Assembly (NCBI GenBank): GCA_963837425.1
Contig: CAWINH010000002.1
Location: 425,344 to 489,343 of the forward strand
Origin: an uncultured Chloroflexia bacterium
GTDB taxonomy: Bacteria; Chloroflexota; Limnocylindria; QHBO01
Length of the DNA: 64,000 nucleotides
Reading direction: 5' to 3'
Positions 43,054 through 54,867 of this stretch are shown here, piece by piece (position 1 is the stretch's first letter; the number at the start of each line of letters is the position of its first letter). A program made the translations under genes and the position numbers. The notes beneath the pieces were generated by a model, which saw only the letters and a list, made by a program, of their open reading frames with translations, made no database searches and was not told the DNA's origin.

Positions 43054-44160
43054 ATGGTGGACGAGCAGGCAGTCGAGCGAGAATCGAACACGCACCGGCC
43101 CGCGGTTGAGCTGACCGAGCGCCAGCGGATCGTGCTGCGCGCCGTCGTCGAGGATTACCTGCGCAGCGCCACCCCGGTCGGCTCCAAGGTGCTCGTGAGC
43201 CGATACCGGCTGGCAGTCAGCTCGGCGACGGTGCGCTCGGCCATGGCGGAGCTCGAGGCGCTGGGGCTGCTGAGCCATCCGCACACGAGCGCCGGGCGCG
43301 TGCCCTCCGACCTCGGGTATCGAATCTACGTCGAGTCGCTCATGCACGAGGCGACGCTCGACGAGGCGGACCAGCTCATGATCCGACACCAGTTCAGCCA
43401 GGTGCAGCTGACGAGCAATGAATGGCTGCGCCTGGCCGCATCGATCCTTGCCGGGAGCACCCGCTCGGCATCCGTCGTGACCCCCGCACGCGCGCGGCGC
43501 GCGCGGTTCGGCCACGTCCAGCTCGTCGAGCTCGCCGACCATGCGCGGCTCTGCGTCCTGGTCCTGACCGACGGCAACGTCGTCCAGCGTCGGTTCGACC
43601 CCGGGCAACTGGATCGCCTCTCCTCGGGCTCGGAGATCGCCCAAGCCGACCTCGACACGGTGGCCGCCGCCCTGAACGCCGAGCTGGCGGGCGCATCGGC
43701 GCCGCAGGTTCGTCGCCGCGCCGGGAAGCTTGGGCCGGTGGCGCAGCATGCGGCCGAGGTCATCGCCGGGCTCCTCGAGGAAGAAGACGGAATCGTGGTG
43801 GAGGACATCTTCACCGACGGCATCGTCAACGTCCTCGAGCAGCCGGAGTTTGCCGAGGGCGCAAAGATGCGGGGGATTCTCGAGGTCCTGCAGCGGTCGG
43901 ACTTCCTCGAGCAGCTCGTTCCGGTGCTGGCCCGGAATCGCGGCGTGCACGTCATCATCGGCCACGAGAACGCGAACGACGCGATGCACGAGGTGAGCCT
44001 CGTCTTCGCTCCCTACGGGGCCCCGGATCGGGCGCTCGGCCTGCTCGGCGTGCTGGGCCCCACGAGGATGCCGTACCCGCGCGCGATTCCAACCGTGCGC
44101 TACCTGTCGGTCCTCATGAACGAGCTGATCAACAGCCACTGGGGGGAGACGTATGACTGA
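43054..44160 (+). CDS. hrcA: Heat-inducible transcription repressor HrcA
   Basis: LTERQRIVLRAVVEDYLRSATPVGSKVLVSRYRLAVSSATVRSAMAELEALGLLSHPHTSAGRVPSDLGYRIYV... 368 aa, intact. CIRCE upstream. Confidence 0.9.
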   Translation: MVDEQAVERESNTHRPAVELTERQRIVLRAVVEDYLRSATPVGSKVLVSRYRLAVSSATVRSAMAELEALGLLSHPHTSAGRVPSDLGYRIYVESLMHEATLDEADQLMIRHQFSQVQLTSNEWLRLAASILAGSTRSASVVTPARARRARFGHVQLVELADHARLCVLVLTDGNVVQRRFDPGQLDRLSSGSEIAQADLDTVAAALNAELAGASAPQVRRRAGKLGPVAQHAAEVIAGLLEEEDGIVVEDIFTDGIVNVLEQPEFAEGAKMRGILEVLQRSDFLEQLVPVLARNRGVHVIIGHENANDAMHEVSLVFAPYGAPDRALGLLGVLGPTRMPYPRAIPTVRYLSVLMNELINSHWGETYD

Positions 44161-44704
44161 GCACCCGACGAACGGCGCCGAGGAGCGGGGAGGTGGACGC
44201 GGCGCGTCGCGCGCGGAGCTGACGAAGCAGGTCGCCGAGCTGCAGGCTGCGCTCGAGGCGGCGCAGGGAGAGGGCGAGGAGCACCTCCGCAGCTGGCAGC
44301 GCGCGGTGGCCGACTACACGAACTACAAGCGACGGACCGAGGAGGAGCGCGAAGTCGTGGCGCAGTTCTCCACGGCGCTCCTCATCGGCAAGCTGCTGAC
44401 GGTCCTCGACGACTTCGACCGAGCCCTCGAGCACGTCCCGTCGGACGAGCATCCCGCCTGGGTCGACGGCATCCGGCTGGTGGAGCGCAAGCTGCGTGGC
44501 GTCCTCGAGTCCGAGGGCGTCACCGCCATCGAGTCCGTCGGACAGCCGTTTGACCCGAATCTCCACGAGGCGGTCGTCCACGAGGAGACCACCGACCACC
44601 CCGACAACCACGTCATCGGCGAGCTGCAGCGCGGATACCGGCTCCACGACCGGGTCCTGCGCCCGGCGCTCGTCCGAGTTGCGAACAACCCGAAGGAGCA
44701 GTAA
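44153..44704 (+). CDS. grpE: Nucleotide exchange factor GrpE
   Basis: 183 aa. ...LRSWQRAVADYTNYKRRTEEEREVVAQFSTALLIGKLLTVLDDFDRALEH ... position between hrcA and dnaK. Confidence 0.9.
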   Translation: MTEHPTNGAEERGGGRGASRAELTKQVAELQAALEAAQGEGEEHLRSWQRAVADYTNYKRRTEEEREVVAQFSTALLIGKLLTVLDDFDRALEHVPSDEHPAWVDGIRLVERKLRGVLESEGVTAIESVGQPFDPNLHEAVVHEETTDHPDNHVIGELQRGYRLHDRVLRPALVRVANNPKEQ

Positions 44705-44710
44705 CCGGCA

Positions 44711-46640
44711 ATGGGCAAGATCATCGGCATTGACCTGGGCACCACCAACTCGGCGGTTGCCGTCATGGAGGGCGGCGAGCCACAGGTCATCACGAACGCG
44801 GAGGGCGGGCGCATCACCCCGTCGGTCGTCGGCTTCGCCAAGAGCGGCGAGCGGCTCGTCGGCCAGGTGGCGAAGCGCCAGGCGATCACGAACCCGGAGA
44901 ACACGATCTTCTCCATCAAGCGCTTCATGGGGCGTCGCTGGGACGACCCCGAGGTCCAGCGCAGCAAGGACCTCGTGCCCTACACGGTGGAGAAGGATCC
45001 GAAGTCCGACGGCGTGATCGTGACCCTCGCCAACGGCAAGGCCTTCAGCCCGCCGGAGATCAGCGCCATGATCCTCCAGAAGATGAAGGGTGACGCCGAG
45101 GCATACCTCGGCGAGAAGGTCACCGAGGCGGTGATCACCGTGCCGGCCTACTTCGACGACACCCAGCGCCAGGCCACGAAAGACGCCGGGCGGATTGCCG
45201 GGCTGGACGTCAAGCGCATCGTGAACGAGCCGACCGCATCGGCCCTGGCCTACGGCCTGGATAAGACCGTGGACGAGAAGATCGCGGTCTACGACCTCGG
45301 CGGCGGGACGTTCGACATCAGCATCCTCGAGCTGTCGGAGGGCGTCTTCGAGGTCCGCTCCACGAACGGCGACACTCACCTCGGCGGTGACGACTTCGAC
45401 CAGCGCGTGATCGACTGGCTGATCTCCGAGTTCAAGAAGGACCAGGGGATCGACCTGTCCAAGGATCGGATCGCTCTGCAGCGCCTCAAGGAGGCCGCCG
45501 AGAAGGCGAAGATCGAGCTCTCCTCGACGACCCAGACCGAGATCAACCTGCCGTTCATCAGCGCCGACGCCTCCGGTCCCAAGCACCTGGTCATGACCCT
45601 GTCGCGGGCCAAGCTCGAGGACCTCGTCGCCGATCTCATCAAGCAGACCGAGGGTCCCGTCAGGCAGGCGATGTCGGACGCCAGCCTGAAGGCCACCGAG
45701 ATCGACGAGGTGATCCTCGTGGGCGGCATGACCCGCATGCCGGCGGTCGTCGAGGCGGTGAAGGCGCTCTTCGGTGGCAAGGAGCCGCACAAGGGCGTGA
45801 ACCCCGACGAGGTTGTCGCAGTGGGCGCCGCCATCCAGGCCGGGGTCCTGGGCGGCGAGGTCAAGGACGTCCTGCTCCTCGACGTCACGCCGCTGTCGCT
45901 GGGCATCGAGACCCTGGGCGGGGTGGCCACGAAGATGATCAACCGCAACACGACGATCCCCACTTCGCACACGCAGATCTTCAGCACGGCGTCGGACAAC
46001 CAGCCGAGCGTCGACATCGTGGTCCTCCAGGGCGAGCGGGAGATGGCGGCCGACGACAAGAAGCTCGCCACCTTCCGCCTCGACGGCATCCCGCCGGCCC
46101 CGCGCGGCGTTCCACAGATCGAGGTCACCTTCGACATCGACGCGAACGGCATCCTCAACGTGACCGCCAAGGACAAGGCCACGAACAAGGAGCAGAAGGT
46201 GACGATCACTGCGAGCTCCATGCTGGCCAAGGACGACGTGGACAAGATGGTCCGCGACGCGGCGGAGCACGCGGAGGAGGACCGCAAGCGACGCGCCGAG
46301 GTCGAGTCTCGCAACGAGGCCGATGCCCTCACCTTCCAGGCCGAGCGACTGCTCAAGGACCTGGGCGACAAGGTGACCGATGAGGAGAAGGCGGAAGTCG
46401 AATCACGGATCGCGGCCGTCCGCGAGGCCCTGAACGGCGAGGACGCCGGCCCCATCGACTCGACGAAGCAGCAGCTCGCCGAGGTCCTGCAGCGGATCGG
46501 CTCGAAGGCCTACGAGGCTTCCGGGACCGATGGCGACGGCGACGGGACCGACGGCGGCGCCAGCGGGGCCCGGTGATGGCGAGGCCGCCGCCGGCGAGGA
46601 AGAGGGCGAGACGATCGAGGGCGAGTACAAGGAGGTCTGA
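44711..46640 (+). CDS. dnaK: Molecular chaperone DnaK. The listed ORF ends at 46576; the true C-terminus ...[20 protein letters not shown] is in another frame.
   Basis: [42 protein letters not shown] ... [12 protein letters not shown] ... canonical Hsp70 throughout. Confidence 0.97.
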
Positions 46641-46904
46641 TCCCCAGACCGGCCGCGTGGCTCTTGACTCTCGGTCCGCTCGGGCTGCGGCGAGTCCACG
46701 GCGCTTGGCACGCCCCTCTTCTCCGATCGCCGCACGCTCGGAGGTGGCGAGCACCTGTGTGCGCTCTGCCAGGCGAAAGTCGCGGCCCACGGCAGGCAGC
46801 GGCTCAGCGATGAGCAGGTCCGTCAGCTGATCAACAACGGCAGCATGGCGGCCATCGTCTGGGGCGGGAACCACATCTGACGCTCGATGCCTGCCTGGAA
46901 ACAA

Positions 46905-46936
46905 GGGAGCGGCCGGTTGGCCGCTCCCTCTCTGTT
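46905..46936. terminator. Bidirectional rho-independent terminator between the dnaK operon and the convergent DUF11 gene
   Basis: GGGAGCGGCC-ggtt-GGCCGCTCCC perfect 10-bp stem followed by TCTCTGTT. Confidence 0.6.
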
Positions 46937-46945
46937 CGCCGGGCT

Positions 46946-47461
46946 TCAGTGGCGACCGGCCTCGGCTGGTCGGCCGGCGATCTGGACGTCCACCCTGGCC
47001 TCGGCGTAGGACTCCGCGCCGTCAGGACCCCAGGTGACCCACCCGAGCTCGTACGCGTTGTTGCGATCGTGCCTCGGGTTGTTGAAGGTGGTGAGCACTA
47101 GGGTGAGCGTTACGCTCTGTCCCGGCGCCAGGTCCACCGTCGTGCTCGGCGGTGCGCCCACTGCGCACTCGAGTGCACCCAGCTGGGTGGCATAGGTGTT
47201 GCTGCTGCATCCCGATGCAACGTAGTTGAACCAGTCGGGAAGCCACCCGGAGACCACCACATTCTGCGCCGCGGCCTCGCCAACATTGGTGGCCGTGATC
47301 GTGAAGGTGATAGTTCTGCCCGGCTGAACGACGTGCTTGGATGCCTTGATCGTGACATTGAGATCCGCCCCGACCTGGGCAGACGTATGACCCACGAGCG
47401 CGAAGCTGCCGACCAGCATGGCCAGCACCAGGACCGTTGCACCGAATCGCGAACCACGCAT
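46946..47461 (-). CDS. Secreted DUF11 (conserved repeat domain) protein
   Basis: Signal peptide MRGSRFGATVLVLAMLVGSFALVGHTSAQ. DUF11 pattern DLNVTIKASKHVVQPGRTITFTITATNVGEAAAQNVVVSGWLPDWFNYV. Confidence 0.6.
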   Translation of the reverse strand: MRGSRFGATVLVLAMLVGSFALVGHTSAQVGADLNVTIKASKHVVQPGRTITFTITATNVGEAAAQNVVVSGWLPDWFNYVASGCSSNTYATQLGALECAVGAPPSTTVDLAPGQSVTLTLVLTTFNNPRHDRNNAYELGWVTWGPDGAESYAEARVDVQIAGRPAEAGRH

Positions 47462-47659
47462 GCTGCGCCTCTCTCCGAGAATCTCACCGCAAAGGTGGGC
47501 TGAAGCCGTGGGCGGCGAGCGCCATGGTTCCCCGGTCTTCAGCAGGCTCAGCGTTCATGATCGGGGCCGGCGCGCGGCTGTCACCTGCCGAAGGTCGGCG
47601 CGGCAAGAGCCGTTCGTCTCATCCGATGGCGCTTCGCGTGCCGAAGACAGGGGCCCCGG

Positions 47660-48061
47660 CTAGCCAAGCTGGCTCGTGCAGTGCGGGCAGCGGGTCGCCG
47701 CCACCGGGATGTCGGTCGCGCAGAACGGGCAGGCCTTCGTGGTCGGCGCCTCCTCGGGCTGGGCGCCGGCACGGCGCGCGGCCATGGCATTCATCGGCTT
47801 CACGACGAAGAAGAAGATCGCCGCGGCAACCAGGATGAAGCTGACGAGCGCGTTCAGGAAGTCGCCGTAGGCGATCGTGGCATTGCCGGCGGTGATCGTC
47901 AGCGTCGAGAAGTCCGGCACGCCAATCAGGCCGAGCAGCGGGGTGAGGATCTTCTCGGTGAACGAGGTGACGACGGCGCCGAACGCGGCGCCAATGACGA
48001 CCGCCACCGCCAGGTCGACGACGTTGCCCCGCAGCAGGAAATCGCGAAACTCCTTGATCAT
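47660..48061 (-). CDS. mscL: Large-conductance mechanosensitive channel MscL with C-terminal Cys4 zinc-ribbon
   Basis: MIKEFRDFLLRGNVVDLAVAVVIGAAFGAVVTSFTEKILTPLLGLIGVPDFS...GDFLNALVSFILVAAAIFFFVVKPMN ... KACPFCATDIPVAATRCPHCTSQLG. Strong GAGGAGGAAGGAG RBS. Confidence 0.85.
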   Translation of the reverse strand: MIKEFRDFLLRGNVVDLAVAVVIGAAFGAVVTSFTEKILTPLLGLIGVPDFSTLTITAGNATIAYGDFLNALVSFILVAAAIFFFVVKPMNAMAARRAGAQPEEAPTTKACPFCATDIPVAATRCPHCTSQLG

Positions 48062-48081
48062 CCCGGGCTCCTTCCTCCTCG

Positions 48082-48960
48082 TCAGGTCTCGCGCCGGATG
48101 GCGCGCGTCATGCAGGTCGGCCCCCCGCTGCCGTTGATCCCGATCTCGCTCGCAGGATACGTGTGCACCTCACAGCCCGCCAGCTCCAGCGCGGTGCGGG
48201 TGCGGGGATTGCCCTCGGCGGCGACCAGCACCCCGGGTCGCACGGCGAGGACGTTGCAGCCGAGAGTCGCGTACTCCTCCTCCGGCACCTCGATCGTCGC
48301 GATCTCGCGCTCGCGGAGCAGGTTCCAGAGGCCCACGGGGAGGAGGGGCGGGTAGACGACGGCCAGGTCATCGGTCACCGGCGAGATGACCGACATCAGG
48401 TGGACGAGGTCAGCGGGTCCGCGCCAGTACGGCAGGTCGAAGATTCGCCCTTTGCCGCCGACGAGCCGTGCGAGCTGGCGGGCGCCATCGTCGTTCGTGC
48501 GAAGCGAGCGACCGATGCACAGCAGGTCCGGACGCAGCCAGAACGCGTCGCCGCCCTCGAGCGTCCCCGGGGCGTCGATGCGGCCGGCGAGCGGGATCCC
48601 GGCGCGCTGCGCCCAGCCGGCGACGAGCGCGGGCTCGGGGCGACGGGCCTCCTTGCCCGGCCGCAGCGCGATCGCTCCGGCATCGCCGATCAGGAGCGGG
48701 TCGTAGACGTAGACGAGATCGGCGAGGTCCAGCTCGTCGGGCAGGGTGTGGATCCGGACGCCGAGCGCCGCGAGCAGCTCGGTGAAGGCGTCGTGCTGTC
48801 GTTGCGCCTCGGCGAGATCGACCGGGTGGCGGAAGCCGAGCTGCGGGTCGTCGAAGGCGGCACCGAAGGCGGGGCCCGGGCGCTTCACGAGCACGTCGCG
48901 GAGCGGCGCGGTCGCGCTCTGCCCGCCGTAGCGTAGCTGCTCCGTCACGCGTGCGAGCAT
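48082..48960 (-). CDS. Dimethylarginine dimethylaminohydrolase (DDAH) / amidinotransferase-superfamily hydrolase
   Basis: 292 aa, intact. Active-site Cys motif ...INGSGGPTCMTRAI at the C-terminus. Fold family pattern throughout. Confidence 0.6.
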   Translation of the reverse strand: MLARVTEQLRYGGQSATAPLRDVLVKRPGPAFGAAFDDPQLGFRHPVDLAEAQRQHDAFTELLAALGVRIHTLPDELDLADLVYVYDPLLIGDAGAIALRPGKEARRPEPALVAGWAQRAGIPLAGRIDAPGTLEGGDAFWLRPDLLCIGRSLRTNDDGARQLARLVGGKGRIFDLPYWRGPADLVHLMSVISPVTDDLAVVYPPLLPVGLWNLLREREIATIEVPEEEYATLGCNVLAVRPGVLVAAEGNPRTRTALELAGCEVHTYPASEIGINGSGGPTCMTRAIRRET

Positions 48961-48969
48961 ACCGTTGGT

Positions 48970-49140
48970 GTCCCACGCAGCGGGACAAACGGCGCACTAG
49001 CGCCGGCTCCCGCGCGAAACGTCCCTCCAGCGGGACAAACCACGCCTGAGGCTCGGCTCCCGCGCGAAACGTCCCACGCAGCGGGACAAACCACGCCTGA
49101 GGCTCGGCTCCCGCGCGAAACGTCCCAGGCAGCGGGACGG
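48970..49140. repeat. Tandem direct repeat, ~50-51 bp x 3.4 copies, each unit carrying a GTCCC-N7-GGGAC hairpin
   Basis: Units start at 48970, 49021, 49071 and 49122: gtccc(a/t)c(g)cagcgggacaaac(c/g)...cggctcccgcgcgaaac. Units 2 and 3 are identical. Lies between divergent DDAH and xth. Confidence 0.8.
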
Positions 49141-49197
49141 CATTGCCAGCGGCGACCCCCCGTTCGGCCCCCGCGACGGCCGCTAGACTCGGAACCG

Positions 49198-49986
49198 ATG
49201 CGGCTGGCGACCTGGAACGTGAACTCCCTGAAGGCCCGCCTGGACCGGGTCCTGGCCTGGGCCGACGCGAAGCGACCCGACGTCCTGTGCATGCAGGAGA
49301 CGAAGGTATCCGACGCCACGATGCCCGAGCTCCCGTTCCGCGAGCTCGGCTACGAGGTCGCGCACCACGGCCAGGGCCAGTGGAACGGGGTGGCGATCGC
49401 GTCGCGGATCGGCCTGGCCGACATCGTCGCCGGGCTCCCCGCGGACGACGGCTGGACCGATGACGGCGGGCGTTTCCTGGCCGCCACCTGCGGCGGCGTG
49501 CGGGTCGCGAGCATCTACGTGCCGAACGGGCGGACGGTCGGCTCCGAGTTCTACGACGAGAAGCTCGTCTGGCTCGAGCGGCTCGGCGAGTGGCTGCTCG
49601 GTCACGCCGACCCGGCCGCTGACCTCGCGATCTGCGGCGATTACAACGTGGCGCCCACCGACGAGGACGTCTGGGACCCGGTTGCGGTCCACGGTGGCAC
49701 CCATGTGTCCGAGCCGGAGCGGGCGGCCGTGGCACGCCTGCGGGACTGGGGGCTGGTCGACGTCGTCCGTCGCTTTCACCCCGAATCCGGCTTCTTCACA
49801 TGGTGGGACTACCGCGCCGGGAACTTCCACAAGAACTTCGGGATGCGGATCGACCACGTCTATGTGACCGAGTCGCTCGCCGCCCGGGCCGTCGCTGCCG
49901 AGCGGGATCGAGACGCGCGGAAGCCGTCGACCTACCCGGGGATCCCGTCGGACCACGCCCCGCTCATCGTCGATTTCGGGGACTGA
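49198..49986 (+). CDS. xth: Exodeoxyribonuclease III (AP endonuclease) Xth
   Basis: MRLATWNVNSLKARLDRVLAWADAKRPDVLCMQETK ... ICGDYNVAPTDEDVWD ... RIDHVYVTESL ... SDHAPLIVDF. 262 aa. Confidence 0.9.
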   Translation: MRLATWNVNSLKARLDRVLAWADAKRPDVLCMQETKVSDATMPELPFRELGYEVAHHGQGQWNGVAIASRIGLADIVAGLPADDGWTDDGGRFLAATCGGVRVASIYVPNGRTVGSEFYDEKLVWLERLGEWLLGHADPAADLAICGDYNVAPTDEDVWDPVAVHGGTHVSEPERAAVARLRDWGLVDVVRRFHPESGFFTWWDYRAGNFHKNFGMRIDHVYVTESLAARAVAAERDRDARKPSTYPGIPSDHAPLIVDFGD

Positions 49987-51230
49987 TCGGCACCGGTGCG
50001 GCGCAGCGCGCCGGCGAGGTCGCGCCCCGGCCGGGTCCGCGGCCACGTCACGGCTCGCGCCCCGACGAACGAGCGGTAGGCGCCCAGCGCGGAGGCCAGG
50101 GCCGGGACGAAGTCCGGCTCCTCCATCGGGCTGAAGCCGTCCTCGAACCAGATCCCGAGGACGCGCAACGTACGGGTGGCGCGCTCGAGGCGCGGCTCGA
50201 AACGGGCGACGAGCCGGTCGCCGAACAGGATGGGGAGCGCGTAGTAGCCGTACTTCCGCTTCGCGGCGGGTGTGTAGACCTCCCACGTGTAGTCGAAGCC
50301 GAACAGGACCTTCGTCAGCCGCCGATCCCAGAGGAAGGGATCGAGGGGCGCCAGGAAGGTGACCGCGCCGGCGGTCACGCCGGTGGGCTCGCCGCCGTCG
50401 AGAAGGTGCGCCTCGTCGGCGAGGATGTGGCGCACGTCGCGGACCCCCTCCACGCGGACCGGCAGCAGGACGCCGTCCGCGACGAGGCCGGCGGTGATCC
50501 GCGCCCGGTCGGCGACGCTGCCGGTGCCCTCGGTGAGGGTGGATGCGCCGCCGATCCCCATCAGGCCCAGTCCCCGATGGCGCGAGAGGAGCCGATGCCG
50601 ATGCTGCTCGTCCTCGCTGGCGTGGGTCGCCAGCAGATCCGCCGGGACGATCCGCTCGATGAGGTCGTAGAAGCGCCGGTTCCCGTCGCGGCGTGCGATT
50701 CCCAGGCGTCCGCTGACGAAGAGCGCCTCCATGACCGCCCGCGCGGCCGGAGTCTCGGCCCACCACCACTCGATGCGCTGCTCGACGTCGCGGAACGCCT
50801 GCGTGGAGAGGACCCCCTCGACGCGGATCCGCTCGATGATCCGCGCGGCGAGCTCGCCGTGCCCCGCGAGGAACTCCCGGTAGTTCTCTGCCATCCGTCC
50901 CCACGTGACGCGGTAGTAGGGGAGCTCGGAGAGGGGCAGGATGTTCAGGCTCTTGTTGTAGAGCTCGATGAGCCGACGCTCCTCCGGCGCCCCGTAGAGC
51001 CAGCGATCGGTCCACGGACGCTCGAAGCTGGCGATCCGCGCGTGGAGCACGAGGTCATGGTTCCGCGCGCCGGGGACCTCGAGCGGGTCGAACTGGAGGC
51101 TGCCGACGCGGTCGATGACGCGCAGGACCGATGCCGGCTCGGCCGGCAGGCTGCGTGGCGGATCCAGCAGGTGGCGCCGGACGAGGAAGCGACGCGCCTG
51201 GTCCGCGGAGAGCTCGAGCGGGGTGTCCAT
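49932..51230 (-). CDS. Winged-helix DNA-binding domain protein, YcaQ/AlkZ (HTH_42, DUF1006) family; putative interstrand-crosslink DNA glycosylase
   Basis: MDTPLELSADQARRFLVRRHLLDPPRS ... VIDRVGSLQFDPLEVPGARNHDLVLHARI ... RVLGIWFEDG. About 433 aa. 3' end overlaps the xth 3' end convergently. Confidence 0.5.
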   Translation of the reverse strand: MDTPLELSADQARRFLVRRHLLDPPRSLPAEPASVLRVIDRVGSLQFDPLEVPGARNHDLVLHARIASFERPWTDRWLYGAPEERRLIELYNKSLNILPLSELPYYRVTWGRMAENYREFLAGHGELAARIIERIRVEGVLSTQAFRDVEQRIEWWWAETPAARAVMEALFVSGRLGIARRDGNRRFYDLIERIVPADLLATHASEDEQHRHRLLSRHRGLGLMGIGGASTLTEGTGSVADRARITAGLVADGVLLPVRVEGVRDVRHILADEAHLLDGGEPTGVTAGAVTFLAPLDPFLWDRRLTKVLFGFDYTWEVYTPAAKRKYGYYALPILFGDRLVARFEPRLERATRTLRVLGIWFEDGFSPMEEPDFVPALASALGAYRSFVGARAVTWPRTRPGRDLAGALRRTGADQSPKSTMSGAWSDGIPG

Positions 51231-51334
51231 CGGCTCACCCGATGCTAGCCGACCGCTGCGCCGAACCTTGACAGGATTCCGGGTAGACGGGCCACACTGG
51301 CATCCACACCCCGAAGTGGAGCAGGCAGCGAGCA

Positions 51335-52048
51335 ATGGAACGATTCCCAGACGGCCCGCCGGGGGCGCATCCGCTGTCGCGCGGCGGGGTGGCGGACAGC
51401 GACGATCCGACCCGGCGATCGCAGCGGCTCCAGATCCTCGCCACCGAGCATTGGAACCTGCTCGCCACCCGATCCCTCTCGTGGAGCGAGTCGTTCAGCC
51501 GGGCCGGCATGTTCCTCACCGTCCTCTCCGGTGCGGTCGTCTCGCTGGCGCTCGTGGCCCAGGCGACCTCGTTCGGGCAGGGGTTCGTCGTCTTCGCGCT
51601 GCTGATCCTGCCGGTGGTGCTCCTCATTGGGCTGGCGACCTACGTCCGGCTCGTCGAGGTCAACAGCGAGGACGTCCACTGGGTGTACGGCATGAATCTC
51701 ATCCGCCACGCATACCTCGACATGGAGCCCGACCTGCGCCCCTACTTCGTCTCCGGCTCGACGATCGATGACGCCGGGATCATCCAGACCTACGGCTCGC
51801 ATGGGACCGGCTCGGTCGCGCTCCACGGGCTCGTGACGACCCCGGCAACGATCGCATTCGTGAACGGCATGCTGGCCGCCGTGTTCGGCGTCGTGGCGCT
51901 CATCCAGTGGCAGATGACGATGCTGCCGGCGGTCGGCGTCGGCGCCGTCCTCTTCGTGGTGACCTGCGCGGCGCAGCTCGGGTTCGAGCGCGCGAGCGAG
52001 CGTCGCTACCAGGCCGAGCACGCGCGACGCGACCCGGTCGGCGACTGA
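51335..52048 (+). CDS. Hypothetical membrane protein (four TM helices)
   Basis: Intact 237-aa ORF. Hydrophobic segments MFLTVLSGAVVSLALVAQA, FVVFALLILPVVLLIGLATYV, and others. No recognized domain. Confidence 0.45.
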   Translation: MERFPDGPPGAHPLSRGGVADSDDPTRRSQRLQILATEHWNLLATRSLSWSESFSRAGMFLTVLSGAVVSLALVAQATSFGQGFVVFALLILPVVLLIGLATYVRLVEVNSEDVHWVYGMNLIRHAYLDMEPDLRPYFVSGSTIDDAGIIQTYGSHGTGSVALHGLVTTPATIAFVNGMLAAVFGVVALIQWQMTMLPAVGVGAVLFVVTCAAQLGFERASERRYQAEHARRDPVGD

Positions 52049-52068
52049 CGGGCGGCACTCGCGGCTGG

Positions 52069-52104
52069 TTGGCACTCTGACATCGCGAGTGCCAGTTTGT
52101 ATAC
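52069..52104. promoter_or_regulatory. Degenerate CIRCE (TTGGCACTC-N9-GAGTGCCAG) overlapping a CTGACA-N17-TATACT promoter for dnaJ
   Basis: Three mismatches to the CIRCE consensus. -10 TATACT at 52099-52104, 13 nt before the dnaJ ATG. Confidence 0.55.
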
Positions 52105-52116
52105 TCTCGGCTCGAA

Positions 52117-53250
52117 ATGGCTGTGAAGCGCGACTACTACGAGGTGCTGGGCGTCGGGCGCGATGCGTCCGACGAGGAGATCAAACGCGCCTTTCGCCGG
52201 GCCGCGCAGCAGCACCATCCCGACGTCGATACGAGTGACGGGGCGGAGCAGCGCTTCAAGGAGCTGAACGAGGCGTATCGGGTCCTCTCGGATCGGCAGC
52301 GGCGCACCGCGTACGACATGTTCGGCCACGCCGGCGTCGACAGCGCGAGCACGGCCGGCGGGTTCGGTGGATTCGGCGGTGGCTTCGGTCCGTTCGGCGA
52401 CATCTTCGACGCCTTCTTTGGCGGGACGCCGGCCGGCAGCCGTACCCGGCGCCGGGTCGTGGCCGGGGCCGACCTGCGCTACGACCTGACGATCGACTTC
52501 ACGGAGGCGGTCTCCGGCGTCACCCGCGCGATCAGCTTCCCGAGCCTCGTGACCTGCGAGGTCTGCGGCGGCTCCGGTGGCGAGCCGGGCACGGAGCCGG
52601 AGACCTGCCCGGAGTGTGACGGCAGCGGCGAGCGCCGTCGGGTGAGCCAGACGATCCTGGGCCAGATGGTGAACATCACCGCCTGCCCGCGCTGCAACGG
52701 CGAGGGCACGGTCGTGGGGACTCCCTGCGAGCATTGCCACGGTGACGGCCGGGTCCGACAGGAGCGTCGCCTCGAGGTGGCCGTCCCGGCCGGGATCGAT
52801 TCCGGGCAGCGGATTGCGCTCGAGGGCCAGGGCGAGGCCGGGCCGCGGGGCGGGCCCGCGGGCGACCTCTACGTCGTCATCACCGTCCGGGATCACCCTG
52901 AGCTCCTGCGGCGCGGCACCGAGCTCTACCACGAGCTGCCCGTCACCTTCGCGCAGGCCGCGCTGGGGGCGACGCTCGAGGTGCCCACGGTCGAGGGAAC
53001 CGAGCCCATCGAGGTGTCCGCCGGCACGCAGTCGGGCGCCGAGATCCGGCTGCGCGGCAGGGGTGTGCCGCGGGTGCGCGGCGGCGGCCGGGGAGACCTC
53101 CACGTCATCGTGACCGTGGTGGTTCCGCCCAAGCTCACGAAGAAGGAGCGCGAGCTGCTCAGACAGCTCGACGAGGTGAGCGCACCGGCCGTGCTGCCCA
53201 AGGGTGGCGCCGGGCTCTTCGACCGCGTGCGCGACTTCTTCGGCGGCTGA
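52117..53250 (+). CDS. dnaJ: Molecular chaperone DnaJ
   Basis: J domain [33 protein letters not shown] region, four CxxCxGxG zinc-finger repeats, C-terminal domains. 377 aa. Confidence 0.95.
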   Translation: MAVKRDYYEVLGVGRDASDEEIKRAFRRAAQQHHPDVDTSDGAEQRFKELNEAYRVLSDRQRRTAYDMFGHAGVDSASTAGGFGGFGGGFGPFGDIFDAFFGGTPAGSRTRRRVVAGADLRYDLTIDFTEAVSGVTRAISFPSLVTCEVCGGSGGEPGTEPETCPECDGSGERRRVSQTILGQMVNITACPRCNGEGTVVGTPCEHCHGDGRVRQERRLEVAVPAGIDSGQRIALEGQGEAGPRGGPAGDLYVVITVRDHPELLRRGTELYHELPVTFAQAALGATLEVPTVEGTEPIEVSAGTQSGAEIRLRGRGVPRVRGGGRGDLHVIVTVVVPPKLTKKERELLRQLDEVSAPAVLPKGGAGLFDRVRDFFGG

Positions 53251-53272
53251 CCGGACCGCTGAGCCGACCATC

Positions 53273-54181
53273 GTGCGCTGGCTGGAGCTGACGGTCACCG
53301 CGGACGTCGAGGCGGTCGAGGCGGTCAGCGAGATCCTGGGGCGCGTGGCTGCCGGCACCGCCGTCCGGCCCACGCGCCTCATCCGCGATCCGGATGACGA
53401 GCTCGCGGCGCGCGAGGACCCGACCGCACCGTACGAGGTGACCGCCCACATTCCCGATGACGGGGCCGCCCCGGCAAACGTCGAGGCCACCGAGCGCGCC
53501 CTCTGGCATCTCCAGGCCTTCGGGCTGCGACCGGTCGGGGAGCTGCTCGTAAGGCCCGTGGACGATGCCGAATGGACCGATGCGTGGAAGGCGGGCTACG
53601 CGCCGCAGCGCATTGGCCGGGTCGTGATCGTGCCGTCCTGGCTGGACGAGCCGATGGCGCCCGGCGAGGTCGCCGTGCGCCTCGACCCCGGAATGGCCTT
53701 CGGCACTGGCCTGCACCCCACGACCCGTGGCTGCCTTTCGTTGCTCCAGGGGGTTTCGCCGATGCCGGTGCGGGCGCTCGACGTCGGCTCCGGGTCCGGC
53801 ATCCTGGCGCTCGTCGCGCTGCGACTGGGCGCGGAGCGCGCCGATTGCCTCGACACCGATCCGGTGGCGGTCGAGACGACCCTGGCCAACGCGGAGGCGA
53901 ACGCCCTCGCCGATCGCGTCGCCGCGCGTGCGGGCAGCCTGACCGGCGGTCCGGTGGCGGACCCGTACCCGCTCGTCCTCGCCAACCTCGTGGCGTCCGT
54001 GCTGGTTCAGCTCGCCGGTCCGCTCGCGGCGCACACCGCCCGAGGTGGCACGCTGATCGCGGGCGGGATCATCGCCGAGCGCGGTGACGAGGTGATCACC
54101 GCGCTGACCGCGGCCGGGCTCTCGCTCATCGAGCGCCGCGACGACGGCGAGTGGGTCGCGCTCCGGATGGTCCGGGGATGA
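53273..54181 (+). CDS. prmA: Ribosomal protein L11 methyltransferase PrmA
   Basis: VRWLELTVTADVEAVEAVSEIL ... SWLDEPMAPGEVAVRLDPGMAFGTGLHPTTRGCLSLLQ ... LDVGSGSGILALVALRLGA ... classic dnaJ-prmA order. Confidence 0.85.
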   Translation: MRWLELTVTADVEAVEAVSEILGRVAAGTAVRPTRLIRDPDDELAAREDPTAPYEVTAHIPDDGAAPANVEATERALWHLQAFGLRPVGELLVRPVDDAEWTDAWKAGYAPQRIGRVVIVPSWLDEPMAPGEVAVRLDPGMAFGTGLHPTTRGCLSLLQGVSPMPVRALDVGSGSGILALVALRLGAERADCLDTDPVAVETTLANAEANALADRVAARAGSLTGGPVADPYPLVLANLVASVLVQLAGPLAAHTARGGTLIAGGIIAERGDEVITALTAAGLSLIERRDDGEWVALRMVRG

Positions 54182-54867
54182 CTCTGCACCGGTTCTTCGT
54201 CTCGCCCGCGGAGATGGCCGGGGAGCGCTTTCCGCTGCCGGCCGACGTCACGCACCAGGTGCGTCGCGTTCTGCGGCTCCACGACGGGGAGCACCTCGTC
54301 CTTCTCGACGGCGCCGGGGAGGAGGTCACCTGCCGGCTCGAGGGCGGGTCCTGCGTCGTCGAGTCGCGGCGTGCGGCCGGCGGCGAGCCGGCGCATCGGC
54401 TCACGGTCTGGCAGGCGCTCCTCCGAGGCGACCACCTCGAGCCGGTGGTGCGCCACGGGACGGAGCTCGGGATCGCGCGTTTCGGACTCTTCGTCAGCGA
54501 GCGCTGCGTGGCACGTGACCTCTCGACGCGCCGGCTCGAGCGGCTGCGGGCGGTCGCACGCGAGGCGGCCGAGCAGTCGGAGCGGGGGATCGTCCCGGAG
54601 GTCTCGGCGCCGGTGCCGTTTGCGGAAGCGCTGCGCGGACCATCGGTCCTGCTCGATCCGCGGGCCGAGGCTCCGCACCTTTCCGAGCTGGCCCCGCCGA
54701 TCAGCGTCGTCATCGGCCCGGAGGGAGGGTTCACGCCGGACGAGGTGGCGGCCGCCGAGCGGGCGGGCCTGCAGGTCGCCGGGCTTGGACCGCGGATCCT
54801 GCGTTCCGAGACGGTCGCCGTGGCGGTTGCCGCCGCGATCTTGTCGCGGACCGGGGACTTCGCCTAG
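54178..54867 (+). CDS. rsmE: 16S rRNA (uracil1498-N3)-methyltransferase RsmE
   Basis: MTLHRFFVSPAEMAGERFPLPADVTHQVRRVLRLHDGEHLVLLDGAG ... VIGPEGGFTPDEVAAAERAGLQVAGLGPRILRSETVAVAVAAAIL. Confidence 0.85.
   Translation: MTLHRFFVSPAEMAGERFPLPADVTHQVRRVLRLHDGEHLVLLDGAGEEVTCRLEGGSCVVESRRAAGGEPAHRLTVWQALLRGDHLEPVVRHGTELGIARFGLFVSERCVARDLSTRRLERLRAVAREAAEQSERGIVPEVSAPVPFAEALRGPSVLLDPRAEAPHLSELAPPISVVIGPEGGFTPDEVAAAERAGLQVAGLGPRILRSETVAVAVAAAILSRTGDFA

Follow-up and report, generated by a model that had tools for sequence, protein, structure and literature searches.

A probable young minisatellite of hairpin-forming 51-bp units between the divergent promoters of xth and an ADI-family gene in an uncultured Chloroflexota lineage

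The promoter region shared by xth and a divergent ADI/DDAH-family gene contains a head-to-tail array of 50- to 51-bp units in the stretch of Chloroflexota DNA that we analyzed (64 kb, hereafter the window). With moderate confidence, we interpret this array as a young, lineage-specific minisatellite that arose by tandem duplication of the VNTR type. It is not a CRISPR, and nothing points to a genome-wide REP element, nor to an operator array that is conserved. The case carries a caution, since regularly spaced palindromes in a promoter can be merely a young minisatellite, and comparison of orthologous loci settles such cases faster than motif arguments.

Structure of the array

Tandem Repeats Finder reports a repeat of period 51 at positions 48970 to 49138, with 3.3 copies, 90% matches and a score of 271. 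This is by far the strongest tandem repeat of the 64-kb window, in which the next-best one scores 59, and it bears out the initial annotation, which had described 50- to 51-bp units from 48970 onward. Tandem Repeats Finder and a repeat-family search together delimit three head-to-tail units (48970 to 49020, 51 bp; 49021 to 49070, 50 bp; 49071 to 49121, 51 bp) and a partial fourth one of 17 bp from 49122, with the plus-strand consensus GTCCCACGCAGCGGGACAAACCACGCCTGAGGCTCGGCTCCCGCGCGAAAC. Identity between units inside the window ranges from 88 to 96%. The tandem array is genuine: two independent assemblies, described below, run into it and stop inside it, so that it is no assembly artifact.

Every unit begins with a palindrome whose arms are GTCCC and GGGAC. 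Seven nucleotides separate the arms in the ADI-proximal copy (GTCCC-ACGCAGC-GGGAC, 48970 to 48986), in unit 3 (GTCCC-ACGCAGC-GGGAC, 49071 to 49087) and in the partial last unit (GTCCC-AGGCAGC-GGGAC, gtcccaggcagcgggac, 49122 to 49138). The 17-bp palindrome at first ascribed to each unit is thus present in units 1, 3 and 4, but that of unit 2 is a 16-bp GTCCC-N6-GGGAC (GTCCC-TCCAGC-GGGAC, gtccctccagcgggac, 49021 to 49036), and its 6-nt center accounts for the 50-bp length of this unit. The GTCCC-N7-GGGAC pattern occurs three times against 0.18 expected, a count reached in none of 100 shuffles.

Units 2 and 3 differ solely in the palindrome center. Both include the small palindrome GCC-TGA-GGC reported earlier (49044 to 49052 in unit 2, 49095 to 49103 in unit 3). 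Unit 1 has another second palindrome in this part, GGCGC-ACTA-GCGCC (48991 to 49004), which is predicted to form a hairpin (z = -4.6 to -4.9 for the unit). Therefore, the intervening segments, which had been taken to be identical throughout, are so only between units 2 and 3. The near-identity of these two units suggests a recent amplification. Between the array and the -10 box of xth, a tail of nonrepeated sequence (49139 to 49183) is possibly a degenerate terminal unit, with CGCGGGGGCCGA facing CGCGGGAGCCGA of the unit (or, as also aligned, TCGGCCCCCGCG facing TCGGCTCCCGCG). This likeness is weak, as a score as good was obtained in 54/2000 and 116/1000 shuffles in two tests.

The array is noncoding. 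Stop codons interrupt plus-strand frames 1 and 2 and minus-strand frame 0, and the 50-bp unit shifts the reading frame through the array. The N-terminally extended calls of xth do not stem from translation of the array. With head-to-tail units within the 10- to 100-bp range in noncoding DNA, the array has the form of a minisatellite, in a window with a G+C content of 70.9%.

Single units fold better than their shuffles (z = -1.05 to -4.9, single strand). As initially proposed, folding predicts multiple alternative pairings of GTCCC and GGGAC segments across the array. The fold of the whole intergenic region is ordinary (z = -1.7 on either strand), and none of the five units compared shows a compensatory base-pair change. 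A 5-bp stem with a 6- to 7-nt center is too weak for cruciform extrusion.

Flanking genes and promoters

Two divergent genes flank the array, which takes up most of the 237 bp that separate them; their assignment in the initial annotation is upheld by Pfam. On the minus strand lies the ADI/DDAH-family gene (48082 to 48948 with its GTG start revised as explained below; 289 aa; Pfam ADI, E = 1.4e-23), and on the plus strand lies xth, encoding an exodeoxyribonuclease III of the Exo_endo_phos family (49198 to 49986; Pfam, E = 5.8e-32). The ADI gene is followed by mscL, while an AlkZ-like glycosylase gene on the minus strand converges on xth, and the whole block sits between hrcA-grpE-dnaK and dnaJ-prmA.

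Each gene is preceded by a -10-like hexamer. TAGACT (49184 to 49189, plus strand) is located 8 nt upstream of the xth ATG, and TATGCT (48956 to 48961, minus strand) is located 7 nt upstream of the GTG at 48948. A TANNNT motif about 12 nt ahead of the start codon characterizes leaderless genes in bacteria of high G+C content (PMC3160421). In the sequence comparison of relatives, the first T of TANNNT stands 11 to 14 nt ahead of both starts. No Shine-Dalgarno sequence was found at xth or at the ADI gene; the downstream mscL has one (GAGGAGGAAGGAG). Since TANNNT boxes are found near both starts and are kept in the relatives, both genes look leaderless, and the sequences thus point to leaderless transcription of xth and of the ADI gene.

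As mechanically called, the ADI open reading frame (ORF) opens at the ATG at 48960, inside the TATGCT box. Its homologs are 288 to 289 aa long (97% query coverage), and their N termini were also aligned at the DNA level. Because the 289-aa homologs begin at the position of the GTG at 48948, this GTG is probably the real start; judging from the alignment, the ADI start was probably called four codons too early, both here and in database entry P0002. The corresponding start region of L007 lies at 108 to 140 of its contig. The xth protein has no exact match in the protein/contig collection, in which the ADI protein is present, and it was probably called differently, or missed, in the source annotation. 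A search for closer relatives by means of xth gave a best match of only 86% identity.

The two -10 boxes of the window are now 222 bp apart. Besides the array, this distance takes in extra sequence on both flanks, about 45 bp toward xth and 8 bp toward the ADI gene. The first palindrome ends 8 nt from TATGCT and falls at about -22 to -38 of the predicted ADI transcription start. No TANNNT is present inside the units on either strand. Having no -10 box and lying upstream of both predicted starts, the units are most likely untranscribed. We also considered the unit as a copy of the ADI promoter/start region and rejected this origin, as there is no similarity between them (996/1000 shuffles score as well). 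Lacking TANNNT and differing from the ADI promoter/start, the units do not constitute a multiplied promoter.

Orthologous loci and origin of the array

In six relatives (L008, L009, L010, L066, L067 and L068), whose ADI proteins are 74 to 84% identical to that of the window, the gene order alkZ-xth<->ADI-mscL-...-dnaK is kept without exception. The closest homologs are labeled "Candidatus Limnocylindria/Limnocylindrales" and Chloroflexota in their source records. The xth-ADI intergenic regions of the six measure 21, 43, 58, 43, 32 and 42 bp, and all six lack the array, as well as any GTCCC-N6/7-GGGAC palindrome. In their place, the two genes are separated by paired -10 boxes 7 to 18 nt apart (L008, 1156 to 1182; L009, 2955 to 3003; L010, 2064 to 2110; L066, L067 and L068, about 1955 to 2003). 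AGTCTA, which is TAGACT on the xth strand, is conserved 8 nt upstream of the xth ATG in five of the six, and the ADI starts are preceded by TATCCT or TATGCT at 5 to 7 nt. In L008, the two boxes physically overlap. No conserved -35-like hexamer was seen by eye in these relatives.

Two other assemblies contain the array. L006, from run ERR11718635, is identical to the window at 1000/1001 bases, and its contig ends in the array. L007, from JGI metagenome 3300081968, has an ADI gene with 94% nucleotide identity to that of the window (89% at 4-fold degenerate sites) and is the only relative found with a related array, of period 51 and with at least two units before the contig end. As in the window, its proximal palindrome lies 8 nt from the -10 box. 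On the ADI strand, the palindromes of L007 have the sequence GTCCC-GCTGGGC-GGGAC, and the segments between them, despite point changes, are clear homologs of those in the window. The units of the two genomes are 76 to 90% identical, a roughly neutral divergence. The gene-proximal unit of L007 starts with ACCAG, like the flank ACCGACGG, and not with GTTTC, so that it is in a shifted register, as expected if palindrome copies had undergone unequal exchange. That both short-read assemblies break in the array is typical tandem-repeat behavior.

Lacking in relatives that are up to 84% identical and present in the 94%-identical L007, the array arose between those two splits, and it has kept changing since the split from L007. 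Its absence from six relatives, together with its divergence and register shift in L007, marks the locus as labile. In the ancestral state, xth and the ADI gene were transcribed divergently from back-to-back core promoters with boxes 7 to 18 nt apart. We propose that a unit of about 51 bp with two short hairpin-forming palindromes then arose between the -10 boxes in the common ancestry of the window and L007, and that replication slippage or unequal recombination amplified it head to tail, with turnover still ongoing. Such an insertion could be tolerated, as the promoters appear to depend on their -10 boxes alone, and the array would most likely be neutral, untranscribed spacer DNA. Its consequences would be the separation of formerly overlapping promoters by about 220 bp, the filling of the -35 region of the ADI promoter (-22 to -38) with new sequence and a locus prone to copy-number change.

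We compared the unit with the 7 to 18 nt of ancestral DNA between the boxes. The L068 alignment was matched by 50/1000 shuffles, and the others were not significant; the likeness of the unit to native intergenic DNA is weak (p about 0.03 to 0.1).

If the copy number varies, strains of this uncultured lineage could be told apart by the locus, which would also represent a natural experiment in which overlapping divergent promoters have been pulled about 220 bp apart. By-products of the comparison are a clear case, in Limnocylindria-type Chloroflexota, of conserved promoters that stand back to back and bear the leaderless signature, and the likely miscalled start codon of the ADI-family gene.

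Searches for related sequences

Within the window, which represents 64 kb of the 682-kb contig of the source genome, there are no further copies of the unit (up to 3 mismatches; blastn-short), and the palindrome occurs nowhere else; the initial annotation had called for this check on the whole genome. Scanning one genome per GTDB species with GAAACGTCCC-N6/7-GGGACAAAC yielded 5 matches, and scanning JGI metagenomes with GTTTGTCCCGCTG-N2/3-GGGAC yielded 55; in these exact-pattern scans, which overlook diverged copies and were run on two collections that do not include the source genome, all matches were single and approximately as numerous as expected by chance. None of the metagenome matches was tandem or had related flanks. 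The one match in IMG/VR viral sequences is at chance level and has no flanking similarity. The translations of the four open frames of the array (two complete and two partial) have no match among 5.8 billion predicted proteins.

Two sets of hairpins encountered in these collections deserve mention. In an Acidimicrobiales MAG (L005, CAWHKS010000001.1, 900 to 1060, minus strand), two intergenic GC-rich hairpins, GCCCGCGGGC and GTCCCCagcgGGGGAC, are each followed by GACAAACC, 127 nt apart, with no Rfam match. These motifs resemble the hairpin followed by ACAAACC of the window, a resemblance that may be coincidental. Moreover, three unrelated medium-G+C metagenome contigs have in common a perfect hairpin with an 8-bp stem and conserved flanks, cgctcacGTTTGTCCCGCTGAGCGGGACccgcga (L033, 502 to 522; L042, 368 to 388; L063, 1222 to 1242); these are chance pattern matches, unrelated to the array.

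The array shares short palindromic repeats at regular spacing with CRISPRs. However, its intervening sequences are copies of each other with a period of 51 bp over three to four units: the 34-nt segments are identical in units 2 and 3, and those of unit 1 and of both L007 units are clear homologs. PADLOC found no cas or other defense genes among the 39 large ORFs, save one oxidoreductase match, and there is no other spaced-repeat array in the window. A CRISPR or an orphan mini-array is thereby ruled out, in line with the initial annotation, and the adjacent cas locus with variable spacers that would have spoken for one was not found in the 64 kb.

Rfam gave nothing at the gathering threshold on the array and nothing relevant at E <= 10 over 48850 to 49300. 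Guanidine-II (mini-ykkC)-like tandem hairpins, which we considered because the neighboring gene belongs to a guanidino-modifying superfamily, were rejected on this basis. Among known regulatory sites compared by eye, neither the RecA-NDp/PafBC promoter, which in actinobacteria is TTGTCRGTG-N8-TANNNT, nor the GlnR box (GTnAC-N6-GAAAC), the LexA box, the ARG box or CIRCE fits the array. According to Pfam, the 16 nearby genes have housekeeping functions only, with no transposase seen among them; the set within about 5 kb on either side comprises genes for a DUF11 protein, mscL, the alkZ-like gene, a membrane protein gene, hrcA-grpE-dnaK and dnaJ, of which hrcA is the only regulator.

Comparison with known repeats

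The tandem repeats of Mycobacterium tuberculosis promoters and the MIRU-VNTRs are the closest counterparts of the array. In M. tuberculosis, repeats of 50 to 60 bp with variable copy number are found just upstream of leaderless genes, as at dop (57 bp), lpdA and cysG (PMC12817950). The present array resembles them in its head-to-tail units of about 50 to 60 bp, its position adjoining leaderless -10 boxes, the high G+C content of its genome, its probable origin by slippage or recombination and the way short-read assemblies collapse or break at it. It differs in that the M. tuberculosis unit contains the promoter, so that copy number equals promoter dosage, whereas the unit described here has no TANNNT. 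In addition, copy-number variation has been demonstrated for the M. tuberculosis repeats and is a prediction for this array, which is flanked by divergent promoters on its two sides.

In MIRU minisatellites, the unit length is 40 to 100 bp (PMC5056196, summarizing Supply et al. 1997). The array shares with them an intergenic location, tandem units in this size range and more diverged units at the array ends. However, the MIRU family is dispersed over 41 loci, while this array is known from one. MIRUs typically lie between codirectional genes of an operon and contain small ORFs overlapping with the stop and start codons. In contrast, the genes on either side of this array are divergent, and no reading frame stays intact across its 50-bp unit. 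Being known from one locus only, with divergent neighbors, it does not belong to the MIRU family.

Enterobacterial REP clusters (BIMEs) and BOX elements are likewise short, hairpin-forming intergenic modules that can occur in tandem; boxB of the pneumococcal boxA-boxB(n)-boxC element, for example, is 45 bp long and repeated 0 to 8 times. REP and BOX families number tens to hundreds of copies scattered over each genome, and REPs are linked to RAYT transposases. The array unit differs from them in that neither the 64 kb nor the scanned collections yielded a dispersed copy.

Alternative explanations

The array could have begun as a small nonautonomous mobile or REP/BOX-like element that inserted between the promoters and was then amplified in tandem, a scenario that we judge fairly unlikely. 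The hairpin-rich unit would fit such an insertion, as would its abrupt appearance in a single lineage alongside about 45 bp of additional nonrepeat DNA. A 5-nt direct repeat, AACGG, is present at both edges of the extra segment, although this observation is post hoc and weak, and the two motifs of the Acidimicrobiales MAG, each a GC hairpin plus GACAAACC, could belong to elements of this type. On the other hand, an element of this kind should have left other copies, and there is no second one within 64 kb, while the genome and metagenome matches are single and at chance number. The REP-like structural element envisaged in the initial annotation is hence disfavored by the genome, metagenome and viral scans alike. 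The translations of the four open frames of the array are unmatched among the 5.8 billion proteins, and no transposase was seen among the neighboring genes.

An unlikely reading is that the array is a newly gained operator array, in which a dimeric protein would bind the palindromes cooperatively and repress or activate the ADI promoter, and perhaps that of xth. The palindrome is strongly overrepresented locally, and the proximal copy, which in both genomes is separated from the -10 box by 8 nt, overlaps the ADI -35 region, a position suited to binding of a repressor or class II activator. Furthermore, the palindrome arms are invariant in the six full copies of the two genomes while their centers vary (CGT, GA, CCT and GGC), which is the pattern of a site contacted through its arms. 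Across the five full units of the two genomes, 18 positions are invariant (GTTT-GTCCC-GCTG...GGGAC), whereas 18 of the 33 other columns vary. The invariance of the ten arm positions has a post hoc P of 0.007 when computed by columns. However, the changes amount to about 10 clustered events, and the estimate by mutational events is about 0.1, which is not significant. The invariance could reflect constraint, such as protein binding or hairpin formation, but gene conversion between units would yield the same arm invariance.

The comparative evidence does not support the dimeric-regulator operator put forward in the initial annotation, as the palindrome is lacking in all six orthologous promoters, and the 64 kb contain no second site. 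Only hrcA was found as a nearby regulator among the genes examined, and its operator is CIRCE, which is unrelated to the array palindrome. Finally, the repetition extends beyond the palindrome to the entire 51-bp unit. The palindrome spacing of 50 to 51 bp (about 4.8 to 4.9 helical turns) is thus a by-product of unit length.

It seems improbable to us that the array is an adaptive regulatory innovation, in which uncoupled promoters would be combined with phased GTCCC-N7-GGGAC sites or with a copy-number rheostat. Were this so, amplification would have freed two mutually occluding leaderless promoters and would provide predicted sites for a dimeric regulator, or phase-variable tuning of ADI-family/xth expression. 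The locus would then illustrate the de novo birth of an operator by minisatellite expansion in an uncultured Chloroflexota lineage.

Very improbable is a role of the array as RNA, be it a structured 5' leader, a small RNA or a degenerate CRISPR-like, cas-independent repeat RNA: its alternating GUCCC and GGGAC segments are predicted to form many alternative hairpins, and the palindrome with its flank loosely resembles a type I-E CRISPR repeat (a stem, then A(U/C)AAACC), but conserved -10 boxes stand between the array and both genes, which places it upstream of both predicted transcription starts, the whole-region fold is unremarkable, and compensatory pair changes, Rfam matches even at E <= 10 and cas genes are all lacking, with "spacers" that are homologous to one another.

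Genomic neighborhood

The minisatellite proposed here lies within a heat-shock block (43054 to 54867 of the window), hrcA-grpE-dnaK ... dnaJ-prmA-rsmE, which is interrupted between dnaK and dnaJ by genes for a DUF11 protein, MscL, the ADI-family protein, exodeoxyribonuclease III, the AlkZ-like glycosylase and a membrane protein. The gene order from alkZ through dnaK is kept in the relatives. The AlkZ-like ORF (49932 to 51335, minus strand) encodes 467 aa, compared with 410 to 420 aa in the relatives, and shares 55 nt with the 3' end of xth. In L009 and L010, a separate 102-aa ORF is located between alkZ and xth, and L068 has a 139-aa ORF on the opposite strand. The length of the AlkZ-like ORF may result from a fusion, a frameshift or mechanical ORF extension.
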